From assembly GCA_040755995.1 (NCBI GenBank), contig JBFMAF010000034.1, positions 48,743-112,742 on the forward strand: a DNA stretch of 64,000 nucleotides, in the 5' to 3' direction. The stretch comes from Acidobacteriota bacterium (lineage in GTDB: Bacteria; Acidobacteriota; CAIWXX01). The position numbers were made by a program, and so were the translations under genes. Shown piece after piece: positions 3,052 to 28,782 of this stretch (positions are counted from its first letter, which is position 1; every line of letters begins with the position of its first letter). Under the pieces are notes generated by a model that saw only the letters and a program-made list of their open reading frames with translations, was not told the origin of the DNA and searched no databases.

Positions 3052-3149
3052 ACCCGTCGGCTCTGACTTCCTGCTTCGCTACTGGAGCCCCTATGAAGCG
3101 GAAGAGAGCGAGGCGCCTGCATGGCGCCGCGCTCGATTCCGCTGGCTGT

Positions 3150-3470
3150 CTAGACGCAGCCGGTGGGTTTCGGAAGCCCGGCGACCTTGCAGGCTCCCTT
3201 GGCCGGACCTGACGGGAACAGTTCGTAGACCTTCTTCAGGTTGAAGCCGGTGTCCTTGCAGAGCTTGCGGATCATCGGGGCGATCTTGAACTCGAGGTAG
3301 TAGCCGCGCAGATAGCGCACGAGCTTCCAGTGGTCATCGGTCAACTCCGCGATGCCCTCTTCCTTCAGGGCCAGCTCCTTCGCGACCTCGTCGTCCCAGA
3401 GCTCCGGGTCCTGAATGAAACCGTCTTCGTCTACTTCGAGGGTCTTCCCACCCAGTTGGACTTGTGCCAT
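3150..3470 (-). CDS. dsrC: Sulfur carrier DsrC
   Basis: C-terminal GPAKGACKVAGLPKPTGCV carries both conserved cysteines. Confidence 0.96.
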   Translation of the reverse strand: MAQVQLGGKTLEVDEDGFIQDPELWDDEVAKELALKEEGIAELTDDHWKLVRYLRGYYLEFKIAPMIRKLCKDTGFNLKKVYELFPSGPAKGACKVAGLPKPTGCV

Positions 3471-3534
3471 GCTTATTCCCCTTTCCGTTGTGTCTTCGAT
3501 TCAAGCGACGTTGCGACCAATCGATACTCCAGTT

Positions 3535-5022
3535 TCATAACGCCCTCGCATGCAGCCCGGCGAGGTCGTGCCTGCACGCGCCTTCGATGCAACCCATGCC
3601 TGCCGTGCCGGAGCTTCGCCTGCGGAAGGCGAGCGCCGTCCTCACAAGTGTCTCGGCCCATTCGGGGCAGCCGAGAGCATGGATGTGCAGGAAAGACGCC
3701 AGCACGTTCCTGTAGACGAGCCCGTCCCGTTCCCCGTCGAATCCATAACCTCTCTCGACTCGAAAGGCCGTGCGGATGAGCTCGCTTTCGGCAGATCGAA
3801 CGAATGAGTATCGGAACTCATGTCCCCGAATGACGGCTCCGATCGGAAAGTACGGGTTGGCCCGATCCGCCACCACGCAGGCGTATCCGTGTCCCATGGG
3901 ACGCTTCCCCAGCTCGAAGGTCACGGGGACGACGCCCGTCATCGCATGGGCCACTCCGTCTACGACCAGGCTCTCGGCCAGGTAGATCAAGCCTCCGCAT
4001 TCGGCGAACACCGGCATGCCTGACTCCACGGCCCGCCGGATCGATGCGCGGAAGCCGGTGTTGTTCTCCAGCGCGGCTGCGTGTGTCTCCGGGTAGCCTC
4101 CCCCGATGTACAGCGCGTCGATGGGCGGTAGCTGCCGGTCGGCCATGGAGTCAAGGAAAACGAGGTGAGCCCCGGCTCGCTCCAGTGCCTCCAGGTTCTC
4201 CGGGTAGTAGAACGTGAAGGCCGAGTCGCGGATGACCCCGATTCGCACGCTGGTCGTGGCCCAGGCATGCCCCTCTGCCTGGGCCGCGCGTGACCAGCGG
4301 AGTTCCGGCGCCTTTTGGGCGAGATCCATGACCGTGACCACATCCACGTGTTTGGCGACGGCCTCGCGTGCCGCCTCTGTCGGCCGTTCGCGTTCCGGGT
4401 GCTCGGCCGGCGTGAGCAGCCCGAGGTGCCGTTCGGGAAGCGCGAGATCATGTATCTTCGGAACGCAGCCGAGCACAGGGACCCCACAAACCTGCTCGAC
4501 TGCGCCCCGAATCGCATGTTCCTGCCGTTTCGTACCAGTGCGGTTGAGGATGACGCCCGCAATAGGCGCATCGGGATCCATCTTCTGGCAGCCGAGAACC
4601 ATAGCCGCGACGGTCCTCGTCGCCCGTGTGCAGTCCACAACGAGGATCACGGGTGTCTGGAGCTCTCTGGCGAGCTCGGCCGAGCTGCCCTCGGCATTTG
4701 CGCCGAGCCCGTCGTGAAACCCGTGATTCGCCTCGACGATGACCAGATCCGCGCCCACGCTCGATTCCGCCACGGACCGGCGGATCACGTCGCTCGACAT
4801 CAGGTACGCGTCAAGGTTACGGCATGGTCGCCCCGCAGCCTCGCCGAGCCAGGCGGGATCGATATAGTCCGGTCCCTTCTTGAACGGGGCGACAGCGAGG
4901 CCGCGGGAGCGCAGCTCGGCGATCAGACCTATGGTCAGAAACGTCTTGCCGCTTCCTCCGCGCAGCCCACTGATCATGAGCCGCGGGCAGTCCCGGGCCT
5001 CGCCCCGAACGCTGGGCGTCAT
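3535..5022 (-). CDS. dsrN: Siroheme amidase DsrN (cobyrinate a,c-diamide synthase family)
   Basis: GGSGKT, FKKGPDYIDP, ERHLGL, FYYPENLE and ECGG motifs; located within the dsr operon. Confidence 0.9.
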   Translation of the reverse strand: MTPSVRGEARDCPRLMISGLRGGSGKTFLTIGLIAELRSRGLAVAPFKKGPDYIDPAWLGEAAGRPCRNLDAYLMSSDVIRRSVAESSVGADLVIVEANHGFHDGLGANAEGSSAELARELQTPVILVVDCTRATRTVAAMVLGCQKMDPDAPIAGVILNRTGTKRQEHAIRGAVEQVCGVPVLGCVPKIHDLALPERHLGLLTPAEHPERERPTEAAREAVAKHVDVVTVMDLAQKAPELRWSRAAQAEGHAWATTSVRIGVIRDSAFTFYYPENLEALERAGAHLVFLDSMADRQLPPIDALYIGGGYPETHAAALENNTGFRASIRRAVESGMPVFAECGGLIYLAESLVVDGVAHAMTGVVPVTFELGKRPMGHGYACVVADRANPYFPIGAVIRGHEFRYSFVRSAESELIRTAFRVERGYGFDGERDGLVYRNVLASFLHIHALGCPEWAETLVRTALAFRRRSSGTAGMGCIEGACRHDLAGLHARAL

Positions 5023-5042
5023 TCCTTGTTCTCGATCTCGAA

Positions 5043-5291
5043 TCAGCTGCCCTTGGCCTCCGGTGGGATCTCCACGAAGCTACCGCCAAAGTAGGTGTAG
5101 ACCAACCGCTCGGAGTCGACGAGCGAGCGAATCGCCTTCTTGCAGATGTCCTTGTTGCACCGGTCCGGGCCAAAAAACTGGACCGCGGCCTTCTCGAGGT
5201 CCATCGGTTTCAGCTTCTTGACGCCGGTGGCATCCTTGACCATCCGGTACATCGCTTCGGCGACTTCTTCTATACTAACTGGTTCAGCCAT
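5043..5291 (-). CDS. dsrD: Dissimilatory sulfite reductase protein D
   Basis: 82 aa winged-helix-like protein (KKAIRSLVDSERLVYTYFGGS) directly downstream of dsrB. Confidence 0.8.
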   Translation of the reverse strand: MAEPVSIEEVAEAMYRMVKDATGVKKLKPMDLEKAAVQFFGPDRCNKDICKKAIRSLVDSERLVYTYFGGSFVEIPPEAKGS

Positions 5292-5302
5292 GGATCAGCT
5301 CC

Positions 5303-6376
5303 CTAGTCCCTCCGGTGCGCGGACCGCTTGAAGGACAGTCCGGCGTACCGGAAGTCATCGATGTGTTGCTTGGTGAACTGGATGCCCGTCTTCTGGAAGA
5401 AGCGCGGCCATCCGATGCGCTCGATCCATTCGCCCATGCGCTCGTACTTCCGCGCATCGGCCGCCCAGACTTCCACCAGGTTCTTTACGGCCCCCACGAC
5501 CTCGGGCCACCGTGGTGGGTTGTTGGGCAGGAACGGGATTGCCAGCTTGGAGAAGCGCGGTTCGGATCTCGCGTTGCTGACCTTGCCGCCGACCCAGATC
5601 GAGACGCCGTCATTGAGCGGATCGTTGAGCGGCATGGCCGGGCAGACGGTGTAGCAGTTCGCGCAGAACATGCACTGCTCCTCGATTACCTCGACGGTCT
5701 CGACACCCTCGATCCGCTTCGGCCGGATCGCAGCCGTCGGGCAGGACGCCACGACCGACGGGATCTCGCACATCTTCGGCAGCTTCTCTTTGTCGAGCTT
5801 CGGCGGACGGCGGTGGATGCCGAGGATGGCGATGTCCGAGCAGTGGACGGCACCGCACATGTTCAGGCAGCAGGCCAGAGCGAGGCGGAGCTTGCCCGGG
5901 AGTTTCATCGTTGTGAAGTACTCGATGAGCTCATCCATGACCGCCTTCACGACGCCCGATGCGTCGGTAGCGGCCGAGTGGCAGTGCACCCAGCCCTGTG
6001 TGTGGACGATGTTGGATATCGAGTTACCGATCCCGCCGACGGGACGCCCAGCGGCCGTGAGATCCGCGACCAGCGGATCGATCCTGGCCGGGTCTGTGAG
6101 CAGGAATTCGACGTTGTTGCGGCTGGTGAATCTCAGGTGCCCGCCGCAGTACTTGTCGGCGAGGTCGCAGTAGAAGCGGATAGTATCGATGGCGATCAGC
6201 CGTGGCGACGCGGCGCGCACCGTGAACAGCTTGTCGCCGCTCTCGGCGACGTGCACCATGACCCCCGGCTTAAGTACCTCGTGATAGGCCCACTTGCCGT
6301 AGTTCTTCTTCACGACGGGGGGCAGGAATTTCTCGTAGTGTGGCGGCCCAATATCAGTCAAGCGTTCCGTTGTCAT
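5303..6376 (-). CDS. dsrB: Dissimilatory sulfite reductase beta subunit
   Basis: [30 protein letters not shown] and PNNPPRWPE motifs. Confidence 0.98.
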
Positions 6377-6400
6377 ATCTGGTTTCTCCTTTCCTCGCCT

Positions 6401-7609
6401 CTAGTTTCCAGCTTCCTCGTCCGCCACCTCGTACTCCTCGTAGAAGACGTACGGGTTGTCTCGCGGATAGGCGACCATTTCGGGGATCGGCTCGATGCCC
6501 ACGGCTTCGAGGAAGTTGCCCATGCCTACGCGCTGGATGAACTCGCCGATGCGCTCGCGGTTCTTGCCTTCCTCGCTCCAGAGATCGAGCATCTTCGCCA
6601 ACAGGTCCTTGAGCTCCTGATTAGGCAGTTCCATTTTTATGAATGGTATCAGCACGGAGGAGAGCATGGCACCCTGTACGATCGGCGCCTTGGAGCCGAG
6701 CAGGATTGTGGCACCGCGGTCGGCGCCGGGCTTCAGGGCCTTGGTCATCACGTTGATGCAGTGCATGCACTTCACGCAGAACTGGTTCTCGATCGCGAGG
6801 GCCTTGCCATCCCAGCTCATGCACTTGCTCGGGCAGAGGTCGCAGACGTCCTTCTGCACGTCCAGGCCCTTCTTCGCGTATTCCTGAACGGCGTCCTGGT
6901 TGATCTGGATCGGTCCGCGCCAGGTTCCGATGATGCTCAGGTCCGCGCGCGCCACGGAAGCCACGCAGTCGTTCGGGCAGCCGGAGCACTTGATCTTGAA
7001 CTTGTATGGGAATGCCGGCCGGTGGAGCTCATCCTGGAAGTGCATGGTGAAGTCGTAGCAGGTGGCCATCGTGTCGTAGCAGGCCCACTCGCAGCGGCCC
7101 ATACCGACGCAGCAGCTGGGCGTCCGCACATCCGAGCCCGAGCCGCCCAGGTCGAATCCCGCATGTGTCAGCTCGGAGAACACGGTCTCGAGCTTGTCTG
7201 TGGAGGTCCCCAGCAGGATGATGTCACCTGTCGACCCGTGCATGTTGGTGATGCCGGATCCGTATTTTTCCCAAATGTCGCAAACCTTGCGCAGGGCCTC
7301 TGACGTGTAGAACCATCCGGCGGGTTGGTTGATACGCATCGTGTGGAAATGCGCAATGTTGGGGAACTTGTCGGGCACATCAGAATACCGCCCGATGACG
7401 CCGCCTCCGTACCCGCGCACGCCGACTATGCCACCGTGCTTCCAGTGCCCGATCTTCTCGTTGTAGGAAAGCTCGAGGACACCCAGAAGATCTTTGGCTG
7501 GGTCGCTTCTAGCGGCGGCCAACTTGATCTCGCGCACGAAGCTCGGCCACTGGCCCTTCTCCAGCTCGCTCAGCTTCGGCGTTTCCGGCAGTTTCTTCGC
7601 TTCACCCAT
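6401..7609 (-). CDS. dsrA: Dissimilatory sulfite reductase alpha subunit
   Basis: HWKHGGIVGVRGYGGGVIGRY, CxxxxxC...GCPNDC siroheme-cluster ligands, HRPAFPYKFK. Confidence 0.98.
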   Translation of the reverse strand: MGEAKKLPETPKLSELEKGQWPSFVREIKLAAARSDPAKDLLGVLELSYNEKIGHWKHGGIVGVRGYGGGVIGRYSDVPDKFPNIAHFHTMRINQPAGWFYTSEALRKVCDIWEKYGSGITNMHGSTGDIILLGTSTDKLETVFSELTHAGFDLGGSGSDVRTPSCCVGMGRCEWACYDTMATCYDFTMHFQDELHRPAFPYKFKIKCSGCPNDCVASVARADLSIIGTWRGPIQINQDAVQEYAKKGLDVQKDVCDLCPSKCMSWDGKALAIENQFCVKCMHCINVMTKALKPGADRGATILLGSKAPIVQGAMLSSVLIPFIKMELPNQELKDLLAKMLDLWSEEGKNRERIGEFIQRVGMGNFLEAVGIEPIPEMVAYPRDNPYVFYEEYEVADEEAGN

Positions 7610-7656
7610 GTGTTTGCAGCTCCTCTCGTTTTGGCGGCCGGCCCTTGGGCGCGAGC

Positions 7657-9330
7657 CTACCGCATTTCAATGTAACCGCAGGGGCATTCCTCTGCGCACT
7701 TCTTGCAACCCTGACAGAATTCCAGCTTGAACTTGTAAGGCTCGTTCCTGTCCATCGGCTTCACGATGGCCTGGTCCTGGCAGTACTTCCAGCAGCTATC
7801 GCAAGTGAAGCACAGCCCGCAGCTCATGCACCGCTTGGCCTCGGCGATCGCCTGCTCCATCGAGAGCCCCAGATTGACCTCGCCGTCCGGATCCGCGAAC
7901 CGCTGCTCGACAGGTACCGCAGAGGCCTGCGCCCGCGCTATCCTCTGGTAGAAATCGAGCTTCATCTTGTTGTGCGCGATCGGAGGCGGCGGCACCTCAT
8001 CTACGAACGGAATCCCACGCAGCCGATGATGGATAGTCTCGGCGGCGCGCCGCCCGTGGTATATAGCCGTGGTCACGATGCCGAGCTCCAGTATGTCGCC
8101 CCCCGCAAACGTGTTCGCAACGGCCGTCTCGCCGCGTTCGTCTACCGGAATCCAGCCCTTCGGGCCCTTCAACGAATCGAGCCCAGTCCAGATCGGTTCC
8201 TGGCTGATGGCCGGAATAATGAAAGACGCGGGAACGAAGAACTCTGATCCCTTGATCGGAACCGGGCGCCGGCGCCCGCTGGCATCAGGCTCCCCAAGCT
8301 CCATTCTCAAGCAAGTCATGCCCGACGCGCGTCCGTTCTCGGCGACGATGGCCACCGGAGCCGCGAGGAACTCGATCTTGATCCCTTCGTGCTCGGCGTC
8401 TTCAATCTCATGTTTGATTGCGGGCATCTCGGCAATCGTGCGGCGGTAAACGATAGTGACGTTCGCGCCCAGCCGCTTGGATACGCGGGCGGCGTCGATT
8501 GCCGTGTCCCCACCTCCGATCACGATCACGTTGCCGCCGACCTCAATCCTCTCGCCGGTGTTTACACGATGGAGGAACTCGGCACCCGTGAGGACATTGG
8601 AGGAATCCTCGCCGGCCACCCCGAGTCTGGCTCCCTTGTGAGCACCGATCCCGACGAAGATCGCCTGGTGACTCTGGCGCACCTCGTCGAGTGAGATGTC
8701 CTTGCCGACCATCGTGTTGAGCCTCAGCTCTACACCCAGCGCGAGCAGCCGATCTATCTCGGCATCCAGGACGGCGTGAGGCAGGCGGTACTTGGGAATG
8801 CCATACCGCAACATCCCGCCCGCCTTCGGGAAGGATTCGAAGACCGTCACCGAATAGCCGCGACGTGCCAACTGGTACGCGCAGGAAAGGCCGGCTGGCC
8901 CGGAACCTATCACGGCGACTTTCTCAGACTGTCGTTCGTCGGTCAGTCGCTTCAGCTCCAGCTTGTTCTCCAGCGCGAAGTCCCCGATGGCTCGCTCGAT
9001 GCAGTTGATCGACACGGGCCCATCCACATGCTCGCGGTTACACTGATCTTCGCACAGGTGAGGACAGACCCTGCCGCAGACGGCTGGGAGCGGGTTCTTC
9101 TCCGTCACGATGCCAAAAGCCTCTCGAAAGGCCTGGTCGTAGCTTTTCCCCTTGTTTTCGGCCTGCGCGATCGTCGTGATGATTCCACGAACGTCGGTCT
9201 GGTTCGGGCAACCGGTCGAGCATGGTGGCGTTTTGAGTACGTACAGGGGCCGGAGAGGCGATGTCTCCCGCGCACTGGTGCTCGCTCCCGTGCCCACACC
9301 CAACTTGCGGACTTTCTTGACGACGGCCAC
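7657..9330 (-). CDS. dsrL: Iron-sulfur flavoprotein DsrL (DsrL-2-type, YRR motif)
   Basis: GTG start. N-terminal RPLYVLKTPPC, GltD-like FAD/NAD(P) domains, IVYRRT, C-terminal RCMSCGLC...CQGCKKCAEECPCG. Directly upstream of dsrA. Confidence 0.9.
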   Translation of the reverse strand: MAVVKKVRKLGVGTGASTSARETSPLRPLYVLKTPPCSTGCPNQTDVRGIITTIAQAENKGKSYDQAFREAFGIVTEKNPLPAVCGRVCPHLCEDQCNREHVDGPVSINCIERAIGDFALENKLELKRLTDERQSEKVAVIGSGPAGLSCAYQLARRGYSVTVFESFPKAGGMLRYGIPKYRLPHAVLDAEIDRLLALGVELRLNTMVGKDISLDEVRQSHQAIFVGIGAHKGARLGVAGEDSSNVLTGAEFLHRVNTGERIEVGGNVIVIGGGDTAIDAARVSKRLGANVTIVYRRTIAEMPAIKHEIEDAEHEGIKIEFLAAPVAIVAENGRASGMTCLRMELGEPDASGRRRPVPIKGSEFFVPASFIIPAISQEPIWTGLDSLKGPKGWIPVDERGETAVANTFAGGDILELGIVTTAIYHGRRAAETIHHRLRGIPFVDEVPPPPIAHNKMKLDFYQRIARAQASAVPVEQRFADPDGEVNLGLSMEQAIAEAKRCMSCGLCFTCDSCWKYCQDQAIVKPMDRNEPYKFKLEFCQGCKKCAEECPCGYIEMR

Positions 9331-9403
9331 TCTTGAAATCTCCTTTCCCTAGCACTGCCCATCCATCGGGAGGGGCATGAGTCTAGCCCAATCTGCTAGT
9401 TAG

Positions 9404-9419
9404 AGCAAAGACTTTGCCA
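9404..9419 (-). promoter_or_regulatory. Sigma-54 -24/-12 promoter for the dsrL-dsrABDNC operon
   Basis: Minus strand reads TGGCAAAGTCTTTGCT, matching TGGCACR-N4-TTGCW with one mismatch, about 75 bp upstream of dsrL. Confidence 0.75.
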
Positions 9420-9483
9420 ACAGCCCGGCGTGTCAGAATTCCTTGAGAAAGCGGCTCGGATGTCCTTCCCCTGCAGCGGCGGC

Positions 9484-9501
9484 CATTACCGAAAGGTAAC
9501 A
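9484..9501. promoter_or_regulatory. Palindromic regulator site, copy 1 (CATTACC-GAAA-GGTAACA)
   Basis: Matches the perfect palindrome at 9982-9999. Lies upstream of the dsrL sigma-54 promoter. Confidence 0.6.
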
Positions 9502-9586
9502 TTGGGCACCCAGGTGTCACCTCCGCGAAACCATACTCCCCGACCGTCATATTGCCGGCGAGACCCCGCTCTCTCAGCCCGATACT

Positions 9587-9808
9587 TCAGGTGGCCGGAC
9601 GCCGGGGAATCCCGAGTATCTTCGTCTTCTTCCACAGCGTCTTCCGGCTGATCCCCAGCATCTGCGCGGCCTTGCCCCGGTTGCCGCCGGTCAGCTGCAG
9701 GACCGAGATGATATGCGCACGTTCGGCCTCCTCTCTGATGCGATCGAGCGGCCTGTGCGAAGCATCAACCTCCTTGTCGCCATTCCCCTGCTTCTTCTCG
9801 CTTTCCAT
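9587..9808 (-). CDS. Stand-alone Fis/NtrC-type helix-turn-helix (HTH_8) protein
   Basis: ERAHIISVLQLTGGNRGKAAQMLGISRKTLWKK. No AAA+ domain upstream. Confidence 0.8.
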   Translation of the reverse strand: MESEKKQGNGDKEVDASHRPLDRIREEAERAHIISVLQLTGGNRGKAAQMLGISRKTLWKKTKILGIPRRPAT

Positions 9809-9981
9809 CCCTCAGTCCTGCGGCAGCTCCTGCCCGAGACGCTAGCTTCCTCCACGCAATTCGGTCGCCTCAAGCAAGTACCTTGCCATCCGCCTGCCTG
9901 CCCTCCGAACCGGTCGACGCCTGGGTCGCGGAACTGCGCAGACTTTGGGGCGGGCGCCTCACGCCCCCACATCCCCATCCG

Positions 9982-9999
9982 TGTTACCTTGAGGTAACA
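9982..9999. promoter_or_regulatory. Palindromic regulator site, copy 2 (TGTTACC-TTGA-GGTAACA)
   Basis: Perfect inverted repeat in the divergent intergenic region. Confidence 0.65.
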
Positions 10000-10030
10000 A
10001 ATCGTCCACCGGACCGCTCAAGAAGTTGGC

Positions 10031-10046
10031 GGGCACGTCTCTTGCT
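10031..10046 (+). promoter_or_regulatory. Sigma-54 -24/-12 promoter
   Basis: GGGCACGTCTCTTGCT, about 50 bp upstream of the ATG at 10098. Confidence 0.75.
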
Positions 10047-10097
10047 ATTGAATGGGCGGGTCAGGCACGGCTGGGTCTGGACCGTGGGAAGCTACAT

Positions 10098-10889
10098 ATG
10101 GCGATAGTTACGATCTCGCGCGGCACACTTAGTGGCGGCCGGCGGCTTGCGACATGCCTCGCGGCGGGGCTCGGGTATCAGGTGATCAGCCGCGAGCTGC
10201 TGGCGGAGGCGGCGCGGAGGTACGGAGTAGACGAGCAGAACCTGATCAGGGGTGTGGAGCAGCCGCCGTCGTTCTGGGAGCGGTTCCGGACAGACCGCCA
10301 GGTGTACCTGGAGGTCATCCGAGCCACTCTGTGCCAGCTTGTGAGACAGGACAATGTCGTCTACCACGGGCACGCCGGGCACATGCTGCTCCAGGGTGTC
10401 GAGCACGTGCTGCGGGTGCGGGTTATTGCGCCCATGGCCTACCGGGTGAGGGCTGCCATGGCGACTCAGGGCCTGGGTGAGAAGGAGGCCGAGGCGTACA
10501 TTCGCAGGAAGGACGAGGAGCGAGCTGCCTGGACGAGGTTTCTGCACGGGGTCGCCTGGGACGACCCCGGCCTCTACGACCTCACCTTCAACCTGGAAAA
10601 CGTTACGGTCGAGGCAGCCTGCGAAGCGATCGTGAGGATGGTGGACCGGCCGGAATTCCGGATGACCGTCGACAGCATGAGACGCCTCGAGGACTTGTAC
10701 GTCGCCAGCCATGTCCGGAGCATGCTCTTCCTCAACCCCAAGGTCGGGATGGCCGCATCCAAGATCGACGTGACGGCTTCCTCAGGTGTCGTTCGACTCT
10801 CAGGGCTGCCACCCGGCGATGTGCTTGTGGCGGAGGCTGTCCGGACTTGCCGGCAGATGCCGGAGGTCAAGGACGTGCAGGCTGGGTAA
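10098..10889 (+). CDS. Cytidylate kinase-like family protein with C-terminal BON domain
   Basis: MAIVTISRGTLSGG, VVYHGHAGH, LRVRVIAP, YDLTFN. C-terminal IDVTASSGVVRLSG (BON). Confidence 0.8.
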   Translation: MAIVTISRGTLSGGRRLATCLAAGLGYQVISRELLAEAARRYGVDEQNLIRGVEQPPSFWERFRTDRQVYLEVIRATLCQLVRQDNVVYHGHAGHMLLQGVEHVLRVRVIAPMAYRVRAAMATQGLGEKEAEAYIRRKDEERAAWTRFLHGVAWDDPGLYDLTFNLENVTVEAACEAIVRMVDRPEFRMTVDSMRRLEDLYVASHVRSMLFLNPKVGMAASKIDVTASSGVVRLSGLPPGDVLVAEAVRTCRQMPEVKDVQAG

Positions 10890-10924
10890 GGGCGCTCGAA
10901 GACCAGAACTGCCGAGGCGGCCGA

Positions 10925-10942
10925 AGTTTCCAAGAGGTAACA
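10925..10942. promoter_or_regulatory. Palindromic regulator site, copy 3 (AGTTTCC-AAGA-GGTAACA)
   Basis: Same motif, about 120 bp upstream of the aprB sigma-54 promoter, a typical enhancer distance. Confidence 0.6.
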
Positions 10943-11059
10943 TCCCATTCCGCCGGAATCGCACCGTGCCCGTCCGGCCTCGCGTGTATCTGCTTGATTT
11001 CTATCGACAATCTATGGGATCGCGGACTGGTACGGCCGTTGTCACCGACTTCAGTCCTC

Positions 11060-11075
11060 AGGCACAACTCTTGCT
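11060..11075 (+). promoter_or_regulatory. Sigma-54 -24/-12 promoter for aprBA-qmoABC-sat
   Basis: AGGCACAACTCTTGCT. Confidence 0.75.
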
Positions 11076-11300
11076 AGCGTTCATGATGCGCCGATGGCGC
11101 GCGCGGTCGCGAGTCTGCGCATGTGGAAACCTTGGAAAGGGAGGTGGTGGGCGGAGAAAGAGACGAGATCGGAGAAACTCAAGAGGGTGTTCTCCCGGCG
11201 ATCAGCACCGGTGAGAGCAGGAGTCAAACGCATTCTTTCTTAAGAAAGGGGCAAAGCGGTAACGGCGGCCAGGCCGCTTATCGCTGCGAGGAGGTAATTC

Positions 11301-11738
11301 ATGCCAAGTTACGTCAACCCGGACAAGTGTGATGGCTGCAAGGCGCTGGACAAGACCGCCTGCCAGTACATTTGCCCGAACGACCTCATGGTTTTGAACA
11401 AGGACACCATGAAGGCGTACAACCGGGAACCCGAGATGTGCTGGGAGTGCTACAACTGCGTGAAGATCTGCCCGACGCAGGCAGTCGCAGTTCGCGGCTA
11501 CGCGGACTTCGTGCCGATGGGCGCGGACGTAGTGCCGTTGCGCTCTACTGACAACATAATGTGGACGGTGAAGTTCCGCAACGGGAGCGTGAAGCGCTTC
11601 AAGTTCCCGATCCGGACCACTACAGAGGGTCAGGCAGTTCCATCCGGCGGCTGGGAAACCGCGCCATCTATCGATGGCCCAACACTGTCCAGCGAACCCG
11701 AATCCCTTGGCCTGCCCGAAGTGTGGACCAAGAAGTAG
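11301..11738 (+). CDS. aprB: Adenylylsulfate reductase beta subunit
   Basis: CDGC...CQYICPND, CWECYNCVKICP, WTVKFRNG..KRFKFPIRTT. Confidence 0.97.
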   Translation: MPSYVNPDKCDGCKALDKTACQYICPNDLMVLNKDTMKAYNREPEMCWECYNCVKICPTQAVAVRGYADFVPMGADVVPLRSTDNIMWTVKFRNGSVKRFKFPIRTTTEGQAVPSGGWETAPSIDGPTLSSEPESLGLPEVWTKK

Positions 11739-11751
11739 GTAGGAGGCGCAC

Positions 11752-13638
11752 GTGGAAGATTTTAAAACCATTGAAGTAGAAACTGACCTATTGATCCTGG
11801 GCGGCGGCATGGCGGCATGCGGAGCCGCAGTCGAAGCGGCCCACTGGGCGAAGCAGAACGGCCTGAAGGTCACGTTGGTCGACAAGGCCGCGATGGATCG
11901 CTCGGGCGCCGTTGCGATGGGCCTTTCCGCCATCAACCAGTACGTGGGCCTCAGGGACGGCCAGAACACGATCAAGGACTATGTCGACTACGTCCGGAAC
12001 GACCTCATGGGCATCACTCGTGAGGATCTCGTAGCCAACATCGCCCGTCACGTCGACTCGACGGTGCACCTGTTCGAGAAGTGGGGCCTGCCGATCTGGA
12101 AAGACGAGAAAGGTGCGTACGTGCACGAGGGCCGTTGGCAGCTCATGATCAACGGCGAGTCGTACAAGGTCGTCGTGGCCGAGGCGGCCAAGAACGCGAT
12201 CGGCAAAGAGAACGTCTACGAGCGCGTGTTCATCGTCGGCCCGATCATGGACGGCGACAGGTGTGCCGGCGCTTACGGGTTCTCGGTCCGCGATAATACG
12301 TTCTACGTGTTCAAGGCCAAGGCCGTCATCGCGACTATGGGCGGCGCAGTGCACGTGTTCAAGCCTCGGTCCTCCGGTGAAGGCCAGGGCCGTGCTTGGT
12401 ATCCGCCGTGGAACGCCGGCGCGTCTGCTTACTTCACGCTGGCTGCCGGCGCCGAGATGACCTGCCAGGAAGTGCGCTTCATCCCGGTCCGGTTCAAGGA
12501 TGCGTACGGCCCGGTGGGTGCGTGGTTCCTGCTGTTCAAGTCGCGCGCAACCAACGCGTTGGGCGAGAACTACATGGAAACGCGCAAGCCCGAGCTCGAC
12601 AAGTGGAAGCCGTACGGCCTCGTGAAGCCGACCCCGGCGAACCTCCGCAACTACCTCGGCATGCTCGATGTGATGGAGGGCAAGGGCCCGATCTACATGA
12701 GAACCGAGGAGGCCATCCAGAAGATCGCCGCGACATCCGGTGACGAGAAGGCCGCGAAGAAGAAGCTGAAGGAGCTCGATTCCGAGGCGTGGGAGGACTT
12801 CCTCGACATGACGATCTCCCAGGCCATCCTTTGGGCAGCCACCAACGTGTCGCCGGAGGAGAAGCCGTCGGAGATCGCGGCCGCTGAGCCGTATTTCATC
12901 GGCTCGCACTCGGGCGCCAGCGGCGCGTGGGTGAGCGGTCCCGAGGACATCCAGAACGACACGTCCAAGAAGGACTACTTCTGGGGCTACGACCACATGT
13001 CCACGGTGAAAGGTCTGTTCTGCGCGGGTGACGCTTCCGGCGCATCCTCGCACAAGTTCTCCTCCGGCTCGCACGCCGAAGGCAGAATCGTAGGCAAGGC
13101 GGCGATGCGGTACATCCTGAAAGAGAAGCCGGCGGCGCCCGCCGTCACGGCTGATATCGTCGCGAAGCTGAAGGAGCAGACCTACAAGCCGCTGAAGAAC
13201 TACGAGGACAACGTCAAACTCACGACGCAGAACGACGTCAACCCCAACTACATCCGTCCAAAGATGTTCATGATGCGCTTGCAGAAGATGATGGACGAGT
13301 ACGCGGGCGGCGTGACGGCTCAGTTCACCACGTCCGAATCCATGCTCAAGAGGGCGCTCGAGCTCCTGGCCTACCTGAAGGAAGACTCGGACAAGCTCGG
13401 TGCCGCGGACCTGCACGAGCTGCAGAGGGCCTGGGAGAACTACCATCGTATGTTCCAGGCCGAAGCGCACGTGCGATCGATTCTCTTCCGCGAAGAGACC
13501 CGTTGGCCCGGGTACTACTTCCGCTCAGACAAGCCGAAGATGGACCCGAACTGGGAGTGCTTCGTCAACTGCATCTACGACGCCAAGACCGGCGATTGGA
13601 AGATGTTGAAGCGACCCATTCACCACATCTTCACGTAG
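11752..13638 (+). CDS. aprA: Adenylylsulfate reductase alpha subunit
   Basis: GTG start after AGGAGG. RSGAVAMGLSAIN, WQLMINGESYK, RFKDAYGPVGAWF, HKFSSGS. Confidence 0.97.
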   Translation: MEDFKTIEVETDLLILGGGMAACGAAVEAAHWAKQNGLKVTLVDKAAMDRSGAVAMGLSAINQYVGLRDGQNTIKDYVDYVRNDLMGITREDLVANIARHVDSTVHLFEKWGLPIWKDEKGAYVHEGRWQLMINGESYKVVVAEAAKNAIGKENVYERVFIVGPIMDGDRCAGAYGFSVRDNTFYVFKAKAVIATMGGAVHVFKPRSSGEGQGRAWYPPWNAGASAYFTLAAGAEMTCQEVRFIPVRFKDAYGPVGAWFLLFKSRATNALGENYMETRKPELDKWKPYGLVKPTPANLRNYLGMLDVMEGKGPIYMRTEEAIQKIAATSGDEKAAKKKLKELDSEAWEDFLDMTISQAILWAATNVSPEEKPSEIAAAEPYFIGSHSGASGAWVSGPEDIQNDTSKKDYFWGYDHMSTVKGLFCAGDASGASSHKFSSGSHAEGRIVGKAAMRYILKEKPAAPAVTADIVAKLKEQTYKPLKNYEDNVKLTTQNDVNPNYIRPKMFMMRLQKMMDEYAGGVTAQFTTSESMLKRALELLAYLKEDSDKLGAADLHELQRAWENYHRMFQAEAHVRSILFREETRWPGYYFRSDKPKMDPNWECFVNCIYDAKTGDWKMLKRPIHHIFT

Positions 13639-13721
13639 GATCGACTGCGGGTGGTCGTCAGTAGCACTGATACACGCTCCGGGCGCAACTGCGCCCGGAG
13701 CGCGACCCCCACGAGGGAACT

Positions 13722-14048
13722 ATGGCTGAGACCAAGCACGACCTGAAGTGCCCCCACTGCGGCCAGATGCTGAGCCCGTTCGGGCTGCCCGAGAGCGGCG
13801 GTTGGGAGTTGCCATTTCAGTTGGCGTGTTTCAACGATGAGTGTTCTTATTACTCCCGGGGCTGGGGATGGATGTTCGAGCGGTTCGGGGTGAGGGCATC
13901 CTACCGCTACCGGGTGGATCCCGTTTCCGGACAGGCTTCCCCGCTTCCGGTGTGGTCCCCTACTGCACTGCGGGACCGAATTCTGGACGACGACACCCTC
14001 GAGAACATCCTTTCTACCCAGGACGTGATCCCTGAACAGAACTGCTAG
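13722..14048 (+). CDS. Small Cys-rich (zinc-ribbon-like) hypothetical protein
   Basis: CPHC...CFNDECSYY motif, RBS GAGGGA, located inside the apr-qmo operon. Confidence 0.7.
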   Translation: MAETKHDLKCPHCGQMLSPFGLPESGGWELPFQLACFNDECSYYSRGWGWMFERFGVRASYRYRVDPVSGQASPLPVWSPTALRDRILDDDTLENILSTQDVIPEQNC

Positions 14049-14084
14049 CTCGGGCGCGTTCCGCGGGAACTGGTACATCTAGAC

Positions 14085-14891
14085 ATGAGCACACAAGCCG
14101 GCGCCCTGCCCGAGGCCCTGCGTAGCCAGAGGCAACTCGGCGCAGACGAGCGCTTCACTTTCGCTTGCCATCCGGGTCTCCGTTGTTTCACGCGCTGCTG
14201 TGCGGACATCAACATCCTGCTGACGCCGCTCGACGTGCTGCGGCTCGCCCGGAGACGCGGGATGACGACCCGTGAGTTCCTTGACACCCATACTCTGACG
14301 CCGATAACGAAAGAGCTGCATCTACCCGTCGTCATGTTGCGCATGGGAGCCGACCCGGAGCGTCGCTGCCCATTTGTGCATCCGGAGACGGGTTGCACGG
14401 TCTACGATGAGCGGCCGTGGGCGTGCCGCATGTATCCGCTGGGCATGGCATTGCCTCCGGCGCGTGCCGGTGTAGAACCGCAGCCGCTTTACGTCATGTT
14501 CGAGGAGGACTTCTGCCTGGGACGTGGCGAGAAGCGGGAGTGGACGGTCAATCGATGGCGGAACGATCAAGGTATCGTGGCACACGACGAGATCGAGGCC
14601 GGGTTCCGCGAGATCGTCTCACACCCCTGGTTCATAGGCGGTCGGCAGCTGGACCCGAAGCGGATGGAGATGTACTTCACCGGCTGCTACGACCTCGACA
14701 CTTTCCGGAGCTTCATCTTCGAGTCCACGTTTCTTCGTAGATTCGAGCTCGACGAAGCCCTGGTCGAGAAGCTCCGGACCGACGATATGGAACTATTCCG
14801 GTTTGCCTTTCGCTGGCTCCGCTACGCCCTCTTCGGCGAACCGACAATGAAGGTACGGCCTGATGCGCCGTCATCCCGGAGGAATAAATGA
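14085..14891 (+). CDS. YkgJ family (CxxCxxCC-type) Fe-S/Zn cluster protein
   Basis: FACHPGLRCFTRCC, LTPLD, CPFV...GCTVYDERPWACRMYP. Overlaps the qmoA start. Confidence 0.82.
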   Translation: MSTQAGALPEALRSQRQLGADERFTFACHPGLRCFTRCCADINILLTPLDVLRLARRRGMTTREFLDTHTLTPITKELHLPVVMLRMGADPERRCPFVHPETGCTVYDERPWACRMYPLGMALPPARAGVEPQPLYVMFEEDFCLGRGEKREWTVNRWRNDQGIVAHDEIEAGFREIVSHPWFIGGRQLDPKRMEMYFTGCYDLDTFRSFIFESTFLRRFELDEALVEKLRTDDMELFRFAFRWLRYALFGEPTMKVRPDAPSSRRNK

Positions 14892-16144
14892 ACCCATCCA
14901 AACCGCTGCCCCTGCTCGTGCTCGGGGCAGGCATCGCCGGCATCACGGCAGCGCTGGAGGCCGCCGAGGCCGGCCGCGACGTGGTGCTGGTCGAGGCCGA
15001 GCCTGCCGTGGGCGGCCGCGTGCTTCGCAATCACCTCTACTTCCCGAAGCTCTGTCCCCCATCGTGCGGGATGGAGATCAACGTTCGCCGGCTCGAACGG
15101 AACCCACGCATCAGGGTCCTGGTCCGGACGAACGTCGGCAAGGCGACTTCGACTCCGGACGGCTGGCTGGTGACGCTGAACCAGGCCCCCGCTTACATCA
15201 ATGATCGCTGTACGATGTGCGGAGTCTGCAGCGAGGCATGCCCCGCCAAGGTCTCCGATCCGTTCAACCTGGGCATGAAGCAGGTGCCGGCCATTCGAAT
15301 ACCTCATCCCAGTGCGTGGCCGCGTCGCTTCGTGATGGATCGCAAGGCCTGCCCGGCAGATTGCAAGGCCTGCGTGGATGCGTGCAAGTACAACGCGATC
15401 GACCTGAATGCGTCGCCGCTGGAGGAGACGGTCGAGGTCTCCGCCGTCGTGATCGCAACGGGGTGGCATCCTTACCCGATCGAGAAGCTCACGGAGCTCG
15501 GAGGCGGAACCCTGCCCGACGTGATCGCGAATGTCCAGATGGAGCGGCTGGTGTCGCCGGCGGGCCCTACAGCCGGCAAGATCCAGCGGCCGTCCGACGG
15601 CCGGACGCCCAAGCGCGTCGCTTTCGTACAGTGCGCAGGCTCGAGGGACGTGAACCACCTCCCGTACTGCTCCGCTGTCTGCTGCCTGGCATCACTGAAG
15701 CAGGCGCTGTACGTCCACGACCAACTGCCCGAGACCGAGGTCACCATCTATTACATCGATCGCCGTGCGCCGGGCCGCAACGAAGATGTCCTGACTCGCG
15801 TGGCGGCGACATCCGGCGTGAAGCTCGTCAAGGGCAAGGTCGGCAAGATCGAGCGCGGGTCGGGCGGCGCTTTGAAGTTGAGCGTGGAGGACGTGGAGTC
15901 CGGGCGGCTGGCCGACGCCCAGGCCGACCTAGTCGTGCTCGCCACCGGAATGGTGCCCAACGTGCGCACCGACCAGCTCCCATTCGGTCTCACCAATGAC
16001 GATGATGGATTCGGGCTGGACAACATGGAGAGGCGGGTCGTCGTCGCGGGCGTTTCGCGGCGCCCGGAAGATGTGGCTGCGTCTGTCAGAGACGCCACCG
16101 GGGCCGCTGCGAAGGCCATGGTCGCGGCCGGAAGGAGAGCATAG
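14888..16144 (+). CDS. qmoA: Quinone-interacting membrane-bound oxidoreductase QmoA
   Basis: HdrA-like: YFPKLCPPSCG, FVQCAGSRD, YCSAVCCLASLKQ. Confidence 0.93.
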   Translation: MNPSKPLPLLVLGAGIAGITAALEAAEAGRDVVLVEAEPAVGGRVLRNHLYFPKLCPPSCGMEINVRRLERNPRIRVLVRTNVGKATSTPDGWLVTLNQAPAYINDRCTMCGVCSEACPAKVSDPFNLGMKQVPAIRIPHPSAWPRRFVMDRKACPADCKACVDACKYNAIDLNASPLEETVEVSAVVIATGWHPYPIEKLTELGGGTLPDVIANVQMERLVSPAGPTAGKIQRPSDGRTPKRVAFVQCAGSRDVNHLPYCSAVCCLASLKQALYVHDQLPETEVTIYYIDRRAPGRNEDVLTRVAATSGVKLVKGKVGKIERGSGGALKLSVEDVESGRLADAQADLVVLATGMVPNVRTDQLPFGLTNDDDGFGLDNMERRVVVAGVSRRPEDVAASVRDATGAAAKAMVAAGRRA

Positions 16145-18391
16145 ATGCAGAAGTTCGGCGTTTTCATTTGCACCGGTTGCGGCATCGGCGAGGCGATCAA
16201 GGTCGATCCACTCGCCGCCAAGGCGAAGAAGGCCGGCGCAGTTGTCTGCACGACCCATCCGTGCTTGTGTGCGCCGGAGGGCGTCGCGGCGATACGATCG
16301 ACGCTCCAGGGCGGAGCGGCTGAAGGGGTACTGCTTGCCGCGTGCTCGATCCGAGCGAAGTCCGAGGAGTTCAGGTTCGATCCGGCGCAGGCGGCGGTAG
16401 AGCGGGTCAGCCTGCGGGAACAGTGCGTCTGGTCGCACCCGGCAGGTGACGAGAATACGCAGATGCTGGCCGAAGACCTCATGGCCATGGGCCTTGCCAA
16501 GATCGCCAAGATCAGCGTCCCCAAACCACTAACGGAGACTATCGAGCACACGGTGTTGGTGGTCGGAGGCGGGATCGCCGGACTGGAGGCCGCCAGGGCG
16601 GCTGCGGGTGTAGGCCACCCAGTGGTCCTCGTCGAGGCGAAGGACAAGGTTGGAGGTCACCTGGCGAGTATCAAGGACATGGTGCCGGAGCATCCCCCGT
16701 ACGACGTCGTTCACCCCAATCGAGTCACTGAGCTGGCCGCCCAGGTGAGCGCCCACCCTCAGATCCGCATCCTGACGTCGGCGAAGATCCGGAGCATCGC
16801 GGGCCAGCCCGGTCAGTTCCAGGTCGAGGTCGATACGCCGATCGGAGCCCTGTCGTTCACAGCCGGCGCGATCGTCCAGGCCACGGGCGCGCGACCATAC
16901 GACGCGCGCAAGCTCGCGCACCTCGGATACAGCCAGTCCCCCAACGTGGTCACGTCGCAGGAGCTCGATGGGATGCTCGGCGCCGGTAAGCTCGCCCGCC
17001 CCTCTGACGGCAAGTTGCCCGAGCACATCGTCTTTGTCCAGTGCGCGGGCTCGCGCGATCCGCAGCACCTCCCGTACTGCTCCTCCGAGTGCTGCGGGAA
17101 CACGCTCAGGCAGGTTGCGGCGATCCACCGCGACTACCCGAAGGTCGAGACCGCCGTGGTCTACCGCGACATGAGAACACCGGGGCAGCTCGAAAGATTC
17201 TACCTCGCTGTTCAGTCGCAGCCCAACGGTATGTTCACACGGGGCGAGGTCGAGAAGGTCGAGGGCAACGGTCACCTGAAGGTCTATCTGCGCGAGAGCC
17301 TGCTCGGCGACGGCGTCGCGCTTGACGCCGACCTGGTCGTTCTCGCCGTGGGCATGGTGCCGAACACGGCAGACGGCGAAGCTGTCCGCACGCTGCACGA
17401 CGCGCAGAAGCGCGCCGCCACGGGAGACTCGGAGGTGCAGAAGGCCGAGGCCGCGAAGTTGGCCGCCTCTCTCATCCATCATGGGGGCACTGAGATCCTG
17501 AACCTTGGCTACCGCCAGGGCCCGGACCTCCCTATCCTCAAGTACATGTTCCACGACTCGCACTTCATCTGTTTCCCGTACGAGACACGCCGTACCGGCG
17601 TTTACGTGGCTGGATCGGCGCATGCCCCGATGGATGCTGCACAGGCGGCAGAAGACGGATGGGGCGCGGCGATGAAGGCCGTACAGTGCATCGCGGCGGC
17701 GTGGCGAGGCGAGGCCGTTCACCCGCGCGCGGGTGACATCACGATCCCCGACTTCTTCCTGCAGCGCTGCACGCAGTGCAAGCGATGCACCGAAGAGTGC
17801 CCGTTCGGCACGCTGAACGAGGATGTGAAGGGCACGCCGCAGCCTAATCCTTTGCGCTGCCGACGGTGCGGTATCTGCATGGGCGCGTGTCCCGAGCGGA
17901 TTGTCTCGTTTGCCGACTACTCGGTTGATGCCATCTCCTCGATGATCAAGGCGATGGAGGTGCCGGAGGAGGACGAGGAGAAGCCGCGCATAGTCGCTTT
18001 CCTGTGCGAGAACGATGCGGTGCCCGCCCTGGACGTGGCGGCCAGCCAGCGCCGGAGCTGGAACCCGTGGGTCCGGGTGATCCCGTTGAGGTGCCTCGGG
18101 TCCATGAACATCGTCTGGATCGCGGATGCGCTGTCGAGGGGCATCGACGGAGTCATTCTCATCGGCTGCAAACGTGGGGATGACTACCAGTGCCACTTCG
18201 TCAAGGGCTCCGAGCTGGCCAACACGAGGCTCAGCAACGTTCAGGAGACCCTCCAGCGCCTCCAGCTCGAGAAGGAGCGCATCCAGGTGGTCGAGCTGGC
18301 GCATGACGAGTACCACAGAATCACGGACGTTCTCGATGAGTTCGCCGGTGTCATCGAGAAGGTCGGCCCGAATCCGATGAAGGGATTCTGA
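16145..18391 (+). CDS. qmoB: QmoB (HdrA-like plus ferredoxin plus MvhD domain)
   Basis: ICFPYETRRTG, CTQCKRCTEECPFG, CRRCGICMGACP, C-terminal GCKRGDDYQCHF. Confidence 0.95.
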   Translation: MQKFGVFICTGCGIGEAIKVDPLAAKAKKAGAVVCTTHPCLCAPEGVAAIRSTLQGGAAEGVLLAACSIRAKSEEFRFDPAQAAVERVSLREQCVWSHPAGDENTQMLAEDLMAMGLAKIAKISVPKPLTETIEHTVLVVGGGIAGLEAARAAAGVGHPVVLVEAKDKVGGHLASIKDMVPEHPPYDVVHPNRVTELAAQVSAHPQIRILTSAKIRSIAGQPGQFQVEVDTPIGALSFTAGAIVQATGARPYDARKLAHLGYSQSPNVVTSQELDGMLGAGKLARPSDGKLPEHIVFVQCAGSRDPQHLPYCSSECCGNTLRQVAAIHRDYPKVETAVVYRDMRTPGQLERFYLAVQSQPNGMFTRGEVEKVEGNGHLKVYLRESLLGDGVALDADLVVLAVGMVPNTADGEAVRTLHDAQKRAATGDSEVQKAEAAKLAASLIHHGGTEILNLGYRQGPDLPILKYMFHDSHFICFPYETRRTGVYVAGSAHAPMDAAQAAEDGWGAAMKAVQCIAAAWRGEAVHPRAGDITIPDFFLQRCTQCKRCTEECPFGTLNEDVKGTPQPNPLRCRRCGICMGACPERIVSFADYSVDAISSMIKAMEVPEEDEEKPRIVAFLCENDAVPALDVAASQRRSWNPWVRVIPLRCLGSMNIVWIADALSRGIDGVILIGCKRGDDYQCHFVKGSELANTRLSNVQETLQRLQLEKERIQVVELAHDEYHRITDVLDEFAGVIEKVGPNPMKGF

Positions 18392-18415
18392 TGAAGTTTG
18401 GAGGTTAAGGGAGAC

Positions 18416-19552: not shown

Positions 19553-19626
19553 AGCGCTGCCCAGGTGACGACGCGACAATGCAATGAATCTCGCGAGATA
19601 ATCTCAACGTAAAAGGAGGAGTACTC

Positions 19627-20926: not shown

Positions 20927-20958
20927 AACCGGGGCCTCCAGGCCCCGGTTTTTCTTTT
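20927..20958 (+). terminator. Rho-independent terminator after sat copy 1
   Basis: AACCGGGGCC-TCCA-GGCCCCGGTT followed by a T-tract. Confidence 0.85.
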
Positions 20959-26378: not shown

Positions 26379-26405
26379 TGCGGCGGGCAAGTCTGAGGGG
26401 TAGTC

Positions 26406-26822: not shown

Positions 26823-27008
26823 AGGATGGGGAAGGGCATCTTCACGCCGGGCGCAACCGCCGCATGACGACATCCCATAGATCCGCTACCGCTTGACCGC
26901 AACGAACCCAACAAGTCCCGAGAGGAGGAGCGGCGACCGGATGTCCCGCTTCGCGGATGCGGGGGGTGAGTCCATCTTTCGCGACATGCTCGCCGATCGC
27001 AGAGTCCG

Positions 27009-27063
27009 TGTGGCATACGGCTCAGACAAATTGACCCACTTTGCTCAGATAAACTGACCCACC
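27009..27063. repeat. IS21-family terminal region: TG terminus and two 20-bp direct repeats
   Basis: GCTCAGACAAATTGACCCAC (27020-27039) and GCTCAGATAAACTGACCCAC (27043-27062), 23-bp period. Confidence 0.65.
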
Positions 27064-28758: not shown

Positions 28759-28782
28759 TGTCCCTCGGAATCCACTCTCTGG

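Follow-up and report, generated by a model that had tools for sequence, protein, structure and literature searches.

A predicted sigma-54 control region between the dsr and apr-qmo-sat operons of an Acidobacteriota bacterium, with a DNA-binding-domain-only paralogue of its candidate activator

We analysed a 64,000-nucleotide stretch of the genome of an Acidobacteriota bacterium (contig JBFMAF010000034.1, positions 48,743-112,742, assembly GCA_040755995.1; hereafter the window), which carries two divergent operons, dsr on the minus strand and apr-qmo-sat on the plus strand. The 1.7-kb region between these operons would form a sigma-54 control region with four -24/-12 promoters, each served by an upstream inverted repeat of the form YGTTACC-N4-GGTAACR. 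Comparison with relatives makes it likely that one sensor-controlled enhancer-binding protein (EBP) co-induces the genes for sulfate/sulfite reduction at the four promoters by way of this shared repeat. The regulon belongs to a known type, that of an EBP acting with sigma-54; what is new is a conserved paralogue that consists of the DNA-binding domain only.

Four sigma-54 boxes and a rare inverted repeat

Both strands of the whole genome (7.74 Mb) were scanned for the pattern GGCA-N6-TTGCT, which occurs 53 times. Four of these matches fall in the window, where 100 shuffles gave a mean of 0.44 and none reached four. All four lie in intergenic DNA within 1.7 kb (9404-11075), each oriented toward the gene downstream of it:

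9404-9419, minus strand: sigma-54 box of the dsrL operon, TGGCAAAGTCTTTGCT; predicted transcription start ~9393; 75 nt from the dsrL start codon
9873-9888, minus strand: sigma-54 box of a small helix-turn-helix (HTH) gene, TGGCAAGGTACTTGCT; predicted start ~9862; 65 nt from the start codon
10031-10046, plus strand: sigma-54 box of a kinase-like gene, GGGCACGTCTCTTGCT; predicted start ~10057; 52 nt from the start codon
11060-11075, plus strand: sigma-54 box of the apr operon, AGGCACAACTCTTGCT; predicted start ~11086; 226 nt from the aprB start codon

The GG and GC elements of these boxes are 10 nt apart, as in the consensus TGGCAC-N5-TTGCW. Two of the four read TGGCAA, with A for C at the sixth position, and two read GGCAC without the leading T. 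From its predicted start, the apr operon would have a 5' leader of ~215 nt; an Rfam scan of 9300-11400 returned only a chance-level match to an internal ribosome entry site (E = 0.93) and no known RNA element in the aprB leader. The genome encodes sigma-54 (rpoN; PF04552, 205 bits, C43:18090-18563, in an open frame of 555 amino acids (aa)), and 48 Sigma54_activat matches are listed for it, 41 of them strong.

Four candidate enhancer sites lie in the same region:

9484-9501: proximal dsrL site, CATTACC-GAAA-GGTAACA; two mismatches; 23.1 bits, rank 2 in the genome
9515-9532: decayed distal dsrL site, 31 bp from the proximal site; one half-site kept (GGTGACA, minus strand)
9982-9999: perfect palindrome, TGTTACC-TTGA-GGTAACA; no mismatch; 24.0 bits, best in the genome
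10925-10942: apr site, AGTTTCC-AAGA-GGTAACA; two mismatches; 21.3 bits, rank 3 in the genome

These scores come from a matrix built on 56 sites from 17 loci of relatives, with the window sites excluded. The three stronger window palindromes take the first three ranks, and the next match in the genome scores 14.6 bits. Palindromes with at most two mismatches number five in 7.74 Mb, and three of the five are the window sites. The remaining two were rejected as regulon members and taken as chance occurrences, having no sulfur or sigma-54 context: C24:20277 lies between a hydrolase gene and an open reading frame (ORF) of no known kind, and C39:9419 lies inside a YhcG-like gene. By the matrix criterion, the predicted regulon in this genome is this locus alone.

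We then considered the geometry of the sites. Their centres lie 75 bp (dsrL), 104 bp (HTH gene), and 128 bp (apr) upstream of the GG element, as is typical of NtrC-family enhancers (an inverted repeat suited to an HTH dimer, ~70-150 bp or more upstream of -24). At dsrL, the upstream edge of the proximal site is 83 bp from GG, and its centre is at about -100 with respect to the predicted start. The palindrome at 9982-9999 is common to the divergent promoters of the HTH gene and the kinase-like gene.

A preliminary description of this DNA, made from its letters, had claimed three sigma-54 promoters with boxes at 9404-9419, 10031-10046, and 11060-11075, and palindromes at 9484, 9982, and 10925. 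All three boxes are present at those coordinates, and so are the palindromes, with two, zero, and two mismatches, respectively. The total has to be raised to four, the minus-strand box at 9873-9888 having been overlooked, and the claim of one palindrome upstream of each promoter holds with the correction that the 9982 copy is shared by two of them. For the weak tandem copy reported at 9515-9532, the position is borne out: in the alignment, at 31 bp from the proximal site, it coincides exactly in position with the distal site that 13 related loci conserve. The sequence is not borne out, and we read 9515-9532 as a decayed distal enhancer site that is real in a positional sense only.

One recognition helix in a candidate activator and a small protein

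Three further genes bear on the question of which protein would bind the repeat:

9587-9808, minus strand: 73-aa HTH_8-only protein; Pfam HTH_8 52.6 bits against a cut-off of 22; recognition helix GISRKTLWKK
C34:113719-115053, minus strand: response-regulator EBP with REC, AAA+, and HTH domains, ~1 kb beyond the window end
C34:115121-116584: histidine kinase with HAMP, HisKA, and HATPase_c domains and a periplasmic N-terminal sensor region of ~190 aa, adjoining the EBP gene

A six-frame search of the genome for SRKTLW found two ORFs only, the C34 EBP and the 73-aa protein, and the recognition helix GISRKTLWKK is identical in the two. The EBP has Response_reg (93.5 bits), Sigma54_activat (231.9 bits), AAA_lid_14 (79.7 bits), and HTH_8 (50.4 bits) domains, with the GAFTGA motif present. 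The gene for the 73-aa protein was absent from the preliminary description.

To place these proteins, we used loci of relatives retrieved by a scan of one genome per species, which gave 77 loci. The best of the 77 are in metagenome-assembled genomes (MAGs) labelled Methylomirabilales, NC10, Rokubacteria, and Tectomicrobia, with some labelled 'Deltaproteobacteria' and 'Chloroflexi'. Here, response-regulator EBPs of full length (447 aa) and a sensor kinase are encoded directly upstream of the small gene (L064, L065, and L067) or 4.7 kb upstream of it (L055). The C-terminus of these four EBPs reads ...AAEILGISRKTLWKK... and has the pattern ...ERRYLQEVL.SVGGQ..RAAEILGISRKTLWKK.K.L... The C34 EBP is 72% identical over 447 aa to such module-linked EBPs, against 44% for the next-best EBP of its genome. 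Among the 77 loci, a site stands at the gene's 3' end for 34 of the 53 genes that bear the helix versus none of the 24 that do not, a contrast that we regard as indicative rather than as a formal test. The C34 EBP is the likely activator of the window promoters. The preliminary description had a single EBP controlling dsr and apr-qmo-sat through the shared palindrome, and the comparative evidence (the uniqueness of the helix, the conserved motif and boxes, and the presence of rpoN) supports it. Its further reading, of a facultative rather than a constitutive sulfate reducer, is a conjecture.

The small protein belongs to a tight stand-alone family, for which a length-limited search returned 69 homologues of 40-128 aa. 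Alignment of the family leaves 21 columns without variation, among them all those of the recognition helix GISRKTLWK; the N-terminal 20 residues vary. Its members keep the signature ...EREHI(I/L)SVLQLT..., distinct from the ...ERRYLQEVL.SVGG... of the EBPs. This pattern indicates that the small protein is under purifying selection as a separate family. Among solved structures, residues 23-66 align to residues 53-96 of Fis (E = 1.4e-4), and other PDB matches are the DNA-binding domains of ZraR, NtrX, and an NtrC-family protein. Judged by these alignments, the protein is a member of the HTH_8 family and not a Fis orthologue, since it lacks the N-terminal part of Fis. A predicted complex of two copies of residues 16-73 scored 0.11 against a mark of 0.42, which bears neither way.

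Several other observations concern the small gene and its kin. The closest paralogue within the genome, the HTH at C35:218536-218640 (57% identity over 35 aa), was rejected as a member of the system, having a different helix. It is part of a 226-aa ORF (C35:218536-219216; L050:6510-7187) that has AAA_lid_14 and HTH_8 only, an EBP remnant without the ATPase core. In seven relatives (L055:7162-7179, L058, L059, L061, L063, L065, and L067), the distal palindrome contains the stop codon of the small HTH gene (GTT ACC NNN NGG TAA), and because the stop codon lies within it, the conserved C-terminal tail '...VTxG/R*' is encoded by the enhancer site. In the window, 55 bp separate the end of the gene from the decayed distal site, and the tail differs. 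One NC10-labelled genome (G042) has two copies of the small gene, at L063:2491 and 7112, with identical domains and tandem palindromes after each.

The observations comprise the motifs, which are rare and which relatives conserve with the same geometry, the domain make-up of the proteins, and a recognition helix that only two of them share. From these we infer a mechanism in which the binding partners, the dependence on sigma-54, the signal, and the part played by the small protein are all predictions. The membrane histidine kinase C34:115121-116584 would sense a signal and phosphorylate the response regulator C34:113719-115053. HTH dimers of the regulator would bind the inverted repeats, and its AAA+ ring would remodel the sigma-54 holoenzyme. 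Because the ring would act at all four promoters, the whole sulfate-to-sulfide pathway would be induced together, with sat for sulfate activation, apr and qmo for the reduction of adenosine 5'-phosphosulfate (APS), and dsr for sulfite reduction. The 73-aa paralogue should bind the repeats of the EBP, because the recognition helix is identical, and would be unable to activate, because it lacks the AAA+ domain.

We tentatively suggest that the small protein competes with the EBP for the enhancer. Since its gene appears to be under the same control, with its own sigma-54 promoter and the perfect palindrome, such competition would provide negative feedback or a threshold. A fuller version of this idea, that the small protein is a dedicated modulator of enhancer occupancy (a decoy) for the whole sulfate/sulfite pathway and a recent, promoter-specific replay of the proposed step from NtrC to Fis, is possible and somewhat more doubtful still. 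Alternatively, the protein may bend the DNA in the manner of Fis or form a heterodimer with the EBP.

Conservation in relatives and competing explanations

The arrangement of sites and box is conserved in relatives. A small ORF is present at 16 of the 77 loci, and at 15 of these 16, tandem YGTTACC-N4-GGTAACR sites stand 30-33 bp apart at the gene's 3' end, with a sigma-54-like box within 260 bp. The exception (L070, from a Nitrospirae MAG) has the sites at a different spacing. In aligned relatives, the box lies 81-84 bp past the start of the proximal site; in the window, this distance is 83 bp and the site spacing is 31 bp. An alignment of 14 upstream sequences (the window and 13 related loci) has invariant columns in both sites, in GGCA, and in TTGC, with the window in register, and the dsrL box falls on the GGCA...TTGC columns that are invariant in all 14.

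The conserved box usually stands upstream of dsrL-dsrAB-dsrN. NCBIfam identifies dsrL-like, dsrA, dsrB, and dsrN genes there in five loci (L055, L058, L060, L061, and L063), and in three more (L059, L062, and L066) the ORFs, judged on sizes only, fit the order dsrL-dsrA-dsrB-dsrN. The same annotated dsr loci have, upstream, a second module of sites plus box, then a YeiH-family membrane protein, and then the small HTH gene. The box in L065 precedes an ArrA-like reductase and that in L067 precedes TtrBA-like genes, while molybdopterin oxidoreductases lie downstream in L068, L071, L075, and L084.

The apr side is conserved in two NC10-labelled, aprBA-bearing genomes (G042 and G043). In both, the order is kinase-like gene, degenerate site block, GGCACAxGTCTTGCT box, and aprB-aprA-orf-CxxC-qmoA-qmoB. 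The boxes upstream of aprB are GGCACATGTCTTGCT (G042) and GGCACAAGTCTTGCT (G043), of the form GGCACA(T/A)GTCTTGCT, and the alignment has the apr site block conserved in register in both genomes. The kinase-like orthologue directly upstream of aprB in G042 is 70% identical to that of the window. Both genomes also have a divergent TauE/SafE sulfite-exporter gene behind tandem sites. The preliminary description had named a lack of the motif upstream of orthologous operons beforehand as a refutation of its proposal; motif and boxes are found upstream of dsrL-dsrAB and of aprBA. It had also suggested looking for the motif upstream of dsrMKJOP in particular; the dsrK locus of this genome has neither the motif nor a proper box.

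A second conserved inverted repeat lies between the proximal dsrL site and -24 (alignment columns ~104-125; window ~9437-9458). It reads TTCCGCAAGC.TTTGCGG in L055, L058, L059, L061, L063, and L066; the window, L060, and L062 have a different form, TT(T)CTCAA..A.TTC. A bending protein or a second regulator might bind there.

The helix and the motif also occur together in cultured Geobacteraceae, at L088:7095-8706 (Geomonas) and L091:7129-8743 (Citrifermentans). Behind the gene of a full-length EBP with the GISRKTLWKK helix come exact copies of the GTTACC-N4-GGTAAC site, then a GGCACGCT.CCTGCT box and the gene nrfA (cytochrome c552, 536 bits); L088 additionally has an HPP membrane protein downstream. 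The pair of helix and motif seems to serve several respiratory reductases across phyla.

A number of observations weigh against a single EBP acting through the repeat at all four promoters. First, the sites are uneven. At the kinase-like promoter, only ~42 bp separate the site centre from the GG downstream of it, an unusually short distance for an enhancer. In the distal site at dsrL, 4 of 14 positions are mismatched and the relatives' matrix gives less than 3 bits, so that this site is not significant by sequence alone, and the second apr site of G042 and G043 is unrecognisable in the window. Because of this decay at dsrL and loss at apr, three of the four promoters would rely on a single site. 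Second, the motif is not distinctive in every count. Genome-wide numbers of the 16-mer motif with at most one mismatch in five relatives (3, 8, 7, 4, and 2) are no higher than those of a reversed control (6, 14, 5, 1, and 0), and the signal consists of exact matches and their clustering. In the interval between the kinase-like gene and aprB of G043, a scan allowing three mismatches found no site, the block being visible only by alignment. Third, the reach of the regulon is limited. The aprB upstreams of five distant phylum-mates have neither a GGCA-N6-TTGC box nor a site in any of the five, and the predicted regulon is lineage-restricted, not phylum-wide. The dsrK locus (C37:143510-144934, plus strand; DsrK 717 bits) has no site of 8 bits or more, and the only relaxed-pattern box near it (138962, minus strand) is 4.5 kb upstream and points away; dsrK lies outside the predicted regulon. 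Finally, the candidate EBP is encoded 55 kb from its proposed targets, versus usually a few kb in relatives, and the helix-positive loci were fetched by a pattern that contains the helix itself and are mutually kin, so the independence of the 34/53 versus 0/24 comparison is overstated.

An alternative, which we consider unlikely, is that the small HTH protein is the sole or main occupant of the palindromes, acting as a local repressor or a Fis/IHF-like bender, with the activator acting elsewhere or being another of the 41 strong EBP matches. The small gene is indeed the element most tightly linked to the sites, which start in tandem at its 3' end in 15 of 16 loci, and the locus has no other gene with the helix in this genome; among the solved structures closest to its product is Fis, which bends DNA. 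However, in L068, L071, L075, L088, and L091, the same sites and a sigma-54 box come after a full-length EBP with the helix, with no small protein between. The recognition helix is, moreover, the same in EBP and small protein, and the four window promoters were not seen to share any other conserved repeat upstream.

It is considerably less probable that the boxes are chance or non-functional matches, that sigma-70-type promoters are used, and that the palindrome serves an ordinary regulator. The box calls rest on consensus matching alone, and all four boxes depart from the consensus in the ways given above. A search of sequencing runs for this stretch listed no RNA run containing it, and four DNA runs shared only 0.05-0.06 of its sequence words. 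Yet all four matches of a 64-kb window fall in 1.7 kb of intergenic DNA, correctly oriented upstream of genes. In the aligned upstream sequences of dsrL, arrA, and ttr genes, all 14 have GGCA and TTGC unchanged and at a constant distance from the sites, and the box is kept upstream of aprB in both G042 and G043. A simple consensus scan of 9331-11300 found no sigma-70-like promoter match.

Least credible is the idea that the inverted repeats act as RNA hairpins that terminate or stabilise an upstream transcript. In its favour, stems of 6-7 bp are possible at every repeat, and in relatives the 3' end of the small HTH gene runs into the distal repeat. Against it, the repeats are not followed by a T-run, a scan of 9331-11300 listed no terminator-like site, the loop varies freely, and the arms are conserved without covariation: the 32 deviating arm pairs among the 56 sites comprise 26 broken, 6 G-T, and no compensated pairs. 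The 9982 repeat, moreover, is placed between two divergent promoters and precedes the predicted transcript on either side. The palindrome fits a protein-binding DNA site and not an RNA stem.

Related systems, target operons, and biological meaning

NtrB/NtrC at glnAp2 is the classical arrangement of this kind, with tandem inverted repeats about three helical turns apart and ~100-140 bp upstream of a -24/-12 promoter. The predicted system resembles it in having a sensor kinase, a REC-AAA+-HTH_8 regulator, and tandem sites ~100 and ~130 bp upstream of the start. It differs in its helix (GISRKTLWKK), in its site (GTTACC-N4-GGTAAC), in its targets, which are those of dissimilatory sulfur metabolism rather than nitrogen assimilation, and in the DNA-binding-domain-only paralogue encoded beside the enhancer. 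A similar likeness is seen to AtoS/AtoC and ZraS/ZraR: the related EBPs align full-length to AtoC (429-445 bits) and ZraR (380-395 bits), and the kinases likewise align full-length to AtoS/ZraS, these being the best NCBIfam models for both. All scores are far below the curated cut-offs (714 and 760 bits), however, so the proteins are not AtoC or ZraR orthologues, and the targets are unrelated.

Morett and Bork are said to have proposed in 1998 that Fis originated from the DNA-binding domain of NtrC. The small protein is like Fis in being a stand-alone HTH_8 protein and would likewise have arisen from the DNA-binding domain of an EBP as a separate protein. Unlike Fis (~98 aa, with an N-terminal beta-hairpin arm and a helix A before helices B-D), it has 73 aa and no arm, and shares its helix with a co-resident EBP. 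Whereas Fis is a global nucleoid protein, the small protein is fixed beside the sites of the EBP and looks like a dedicated local factor.

Among sulfate reducers, the sigma-54 regulome of Desulfovibrio vulgaris Hildenborough, which has many EBPs, has been described (Kazakov et al. 2015, PMC4641369). In the accessible parts of that article, DVU0539 has a similar helix (GISRKQLWLKLK) and an inverted repeat with a 4-nt spacer, as here, but the repeat is of the TGCAAAC-N4-GTTTGCA type. Neither 'dsr' nor 'sulfite reductase' occurs in its main text, and in its five supplement files GTTACC and GGTAAC occur once each, incidentally, under the motifs of other regulators. NrfR (DVU0621) of D. vulgaris was rejected as a known counterpart on the same parts of the article, its helix and motif (GTCAT-N6-CTGAA type) being different. 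A non-exhaustive search of the literature on sigma-54 with dsrAB, on EBP truncations, and on the regulation of Geobacter nrfA, which did not extend to subscription journals, found no description of the system.

The genes under the four predicted promoters, assigned by Pfam, and the end of the plus-strand unit are as follows:

1669-9330, minus strand: operon 1 (dsr)
7657-9330, minus strand: dsrL-like NAD(P)H oxidoreductase, 557 aa; Pyr_redox_2, Fer4_20, and C-terminal Fer4_21; directly upstream of dsrA
6401-7609, minus strand: dsrA
5303-6376, minus strand: dsrB
5043-5291, minus strand: 82-aa ORF between dsrB and dsrN; no DsrD Pfam match, weak winged-helix match (E = 0.008)
3535-5022, minus strand: dsrN
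3150-3470, minus strand: dsrC
1669-3051, minus strand: sirohaem synthase
10098-10889, plus strand: cytidylate-kinase-like (PF13189) and BON-domain protein (the kinase-like gene)
11301-20895, plus strand: operon 2, with aprB, aprA, a 108-aa ORF, a CxxCxxCC protein, qmoA, qmoB, qmoC, and sat
20927-20950, plus strand: intrinsic-terminator-like hairpin of 10 pairs with a T-run, ending the apr-qmo-sat unit

The 557-aa protein has the features by which DsrL is recognised, being a GltD-like flavoprotein with Fe-S clusters encoded beside dsrAB, and its orthologues score above the NF009410 cut-off. We use the name dsrL for this gene provisionally, because a review, in its accessible part, says that Methylomirabilota lack dsrL and dsrD (Diao et al. 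2023, PMC10591310). As regards dsrL, that statement conflicts with the dsrL-like gene that precedes dsrA in the window and in at least five related loci. The 82-aa ORF at 5043-5291 occupies the spot where dsrD often lies.

In the apr operon, aprA is followed by the 108-aa ORF (13722-14048, plus strand), and this by the CxxCxxCC gene. The ORF gave no match beyond a zinc-finger one below threshold, and it is found in the same place in G042 and G043, with 59-60% identity. The kinase-like/BON protein has four more paralogues in the genome (C34:20895, C26:126511, C16:95142, and C26:96080), and tandem copies lie on the contig of aprB in G032 (C98). All five phylum-mates with a strong match to it also have aprB. 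A query of G001 and G002, the only genomes of the same family, gave no match and only a weak match, respectively, dsr and apr not having been searched for there, and a metagenome scan found only 6 distant loci at 35-43% identity. The protein may be a nucleotide kinase linked to the turnover of APS and adenosine monophosphate.

Right after the sat terminator, 21466-36468 encodes an ORC/CDC6-like protein of 1233 aa, a C5 DNA methylase, a HerA-like DUF87 ATPase, and a DDE transposase. Judged by this gene content, a variable island with mobile or defence-like genes adjoins the sulfur cluster.

Metagenomics finds dissimilatory sulfite reductase genes in many lineages beyond the classical sulfate reducers, and the question is when, and in which direction, these uncultured organisms use them. 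A control region with four predicted promoters, one motif, one candidate kinase-regulator pair, and one accessory protein makes this question approachable by experiment. If the proposed regulon is real, a single sensor kinase decides when such 'non-canonical' sulfur reducers respire sulfate, and its ligand can be sought. The same pair of helix and motif stands upstream of arsenate-, tetrathionate-, and nitrite-reductase-like genes elsewhere, and may be a widespread switch for anaerobic respiratory reductases. If the paralogue does compete for the enhancer, it would represent an undescribed way of tuning sigma-54 activation.

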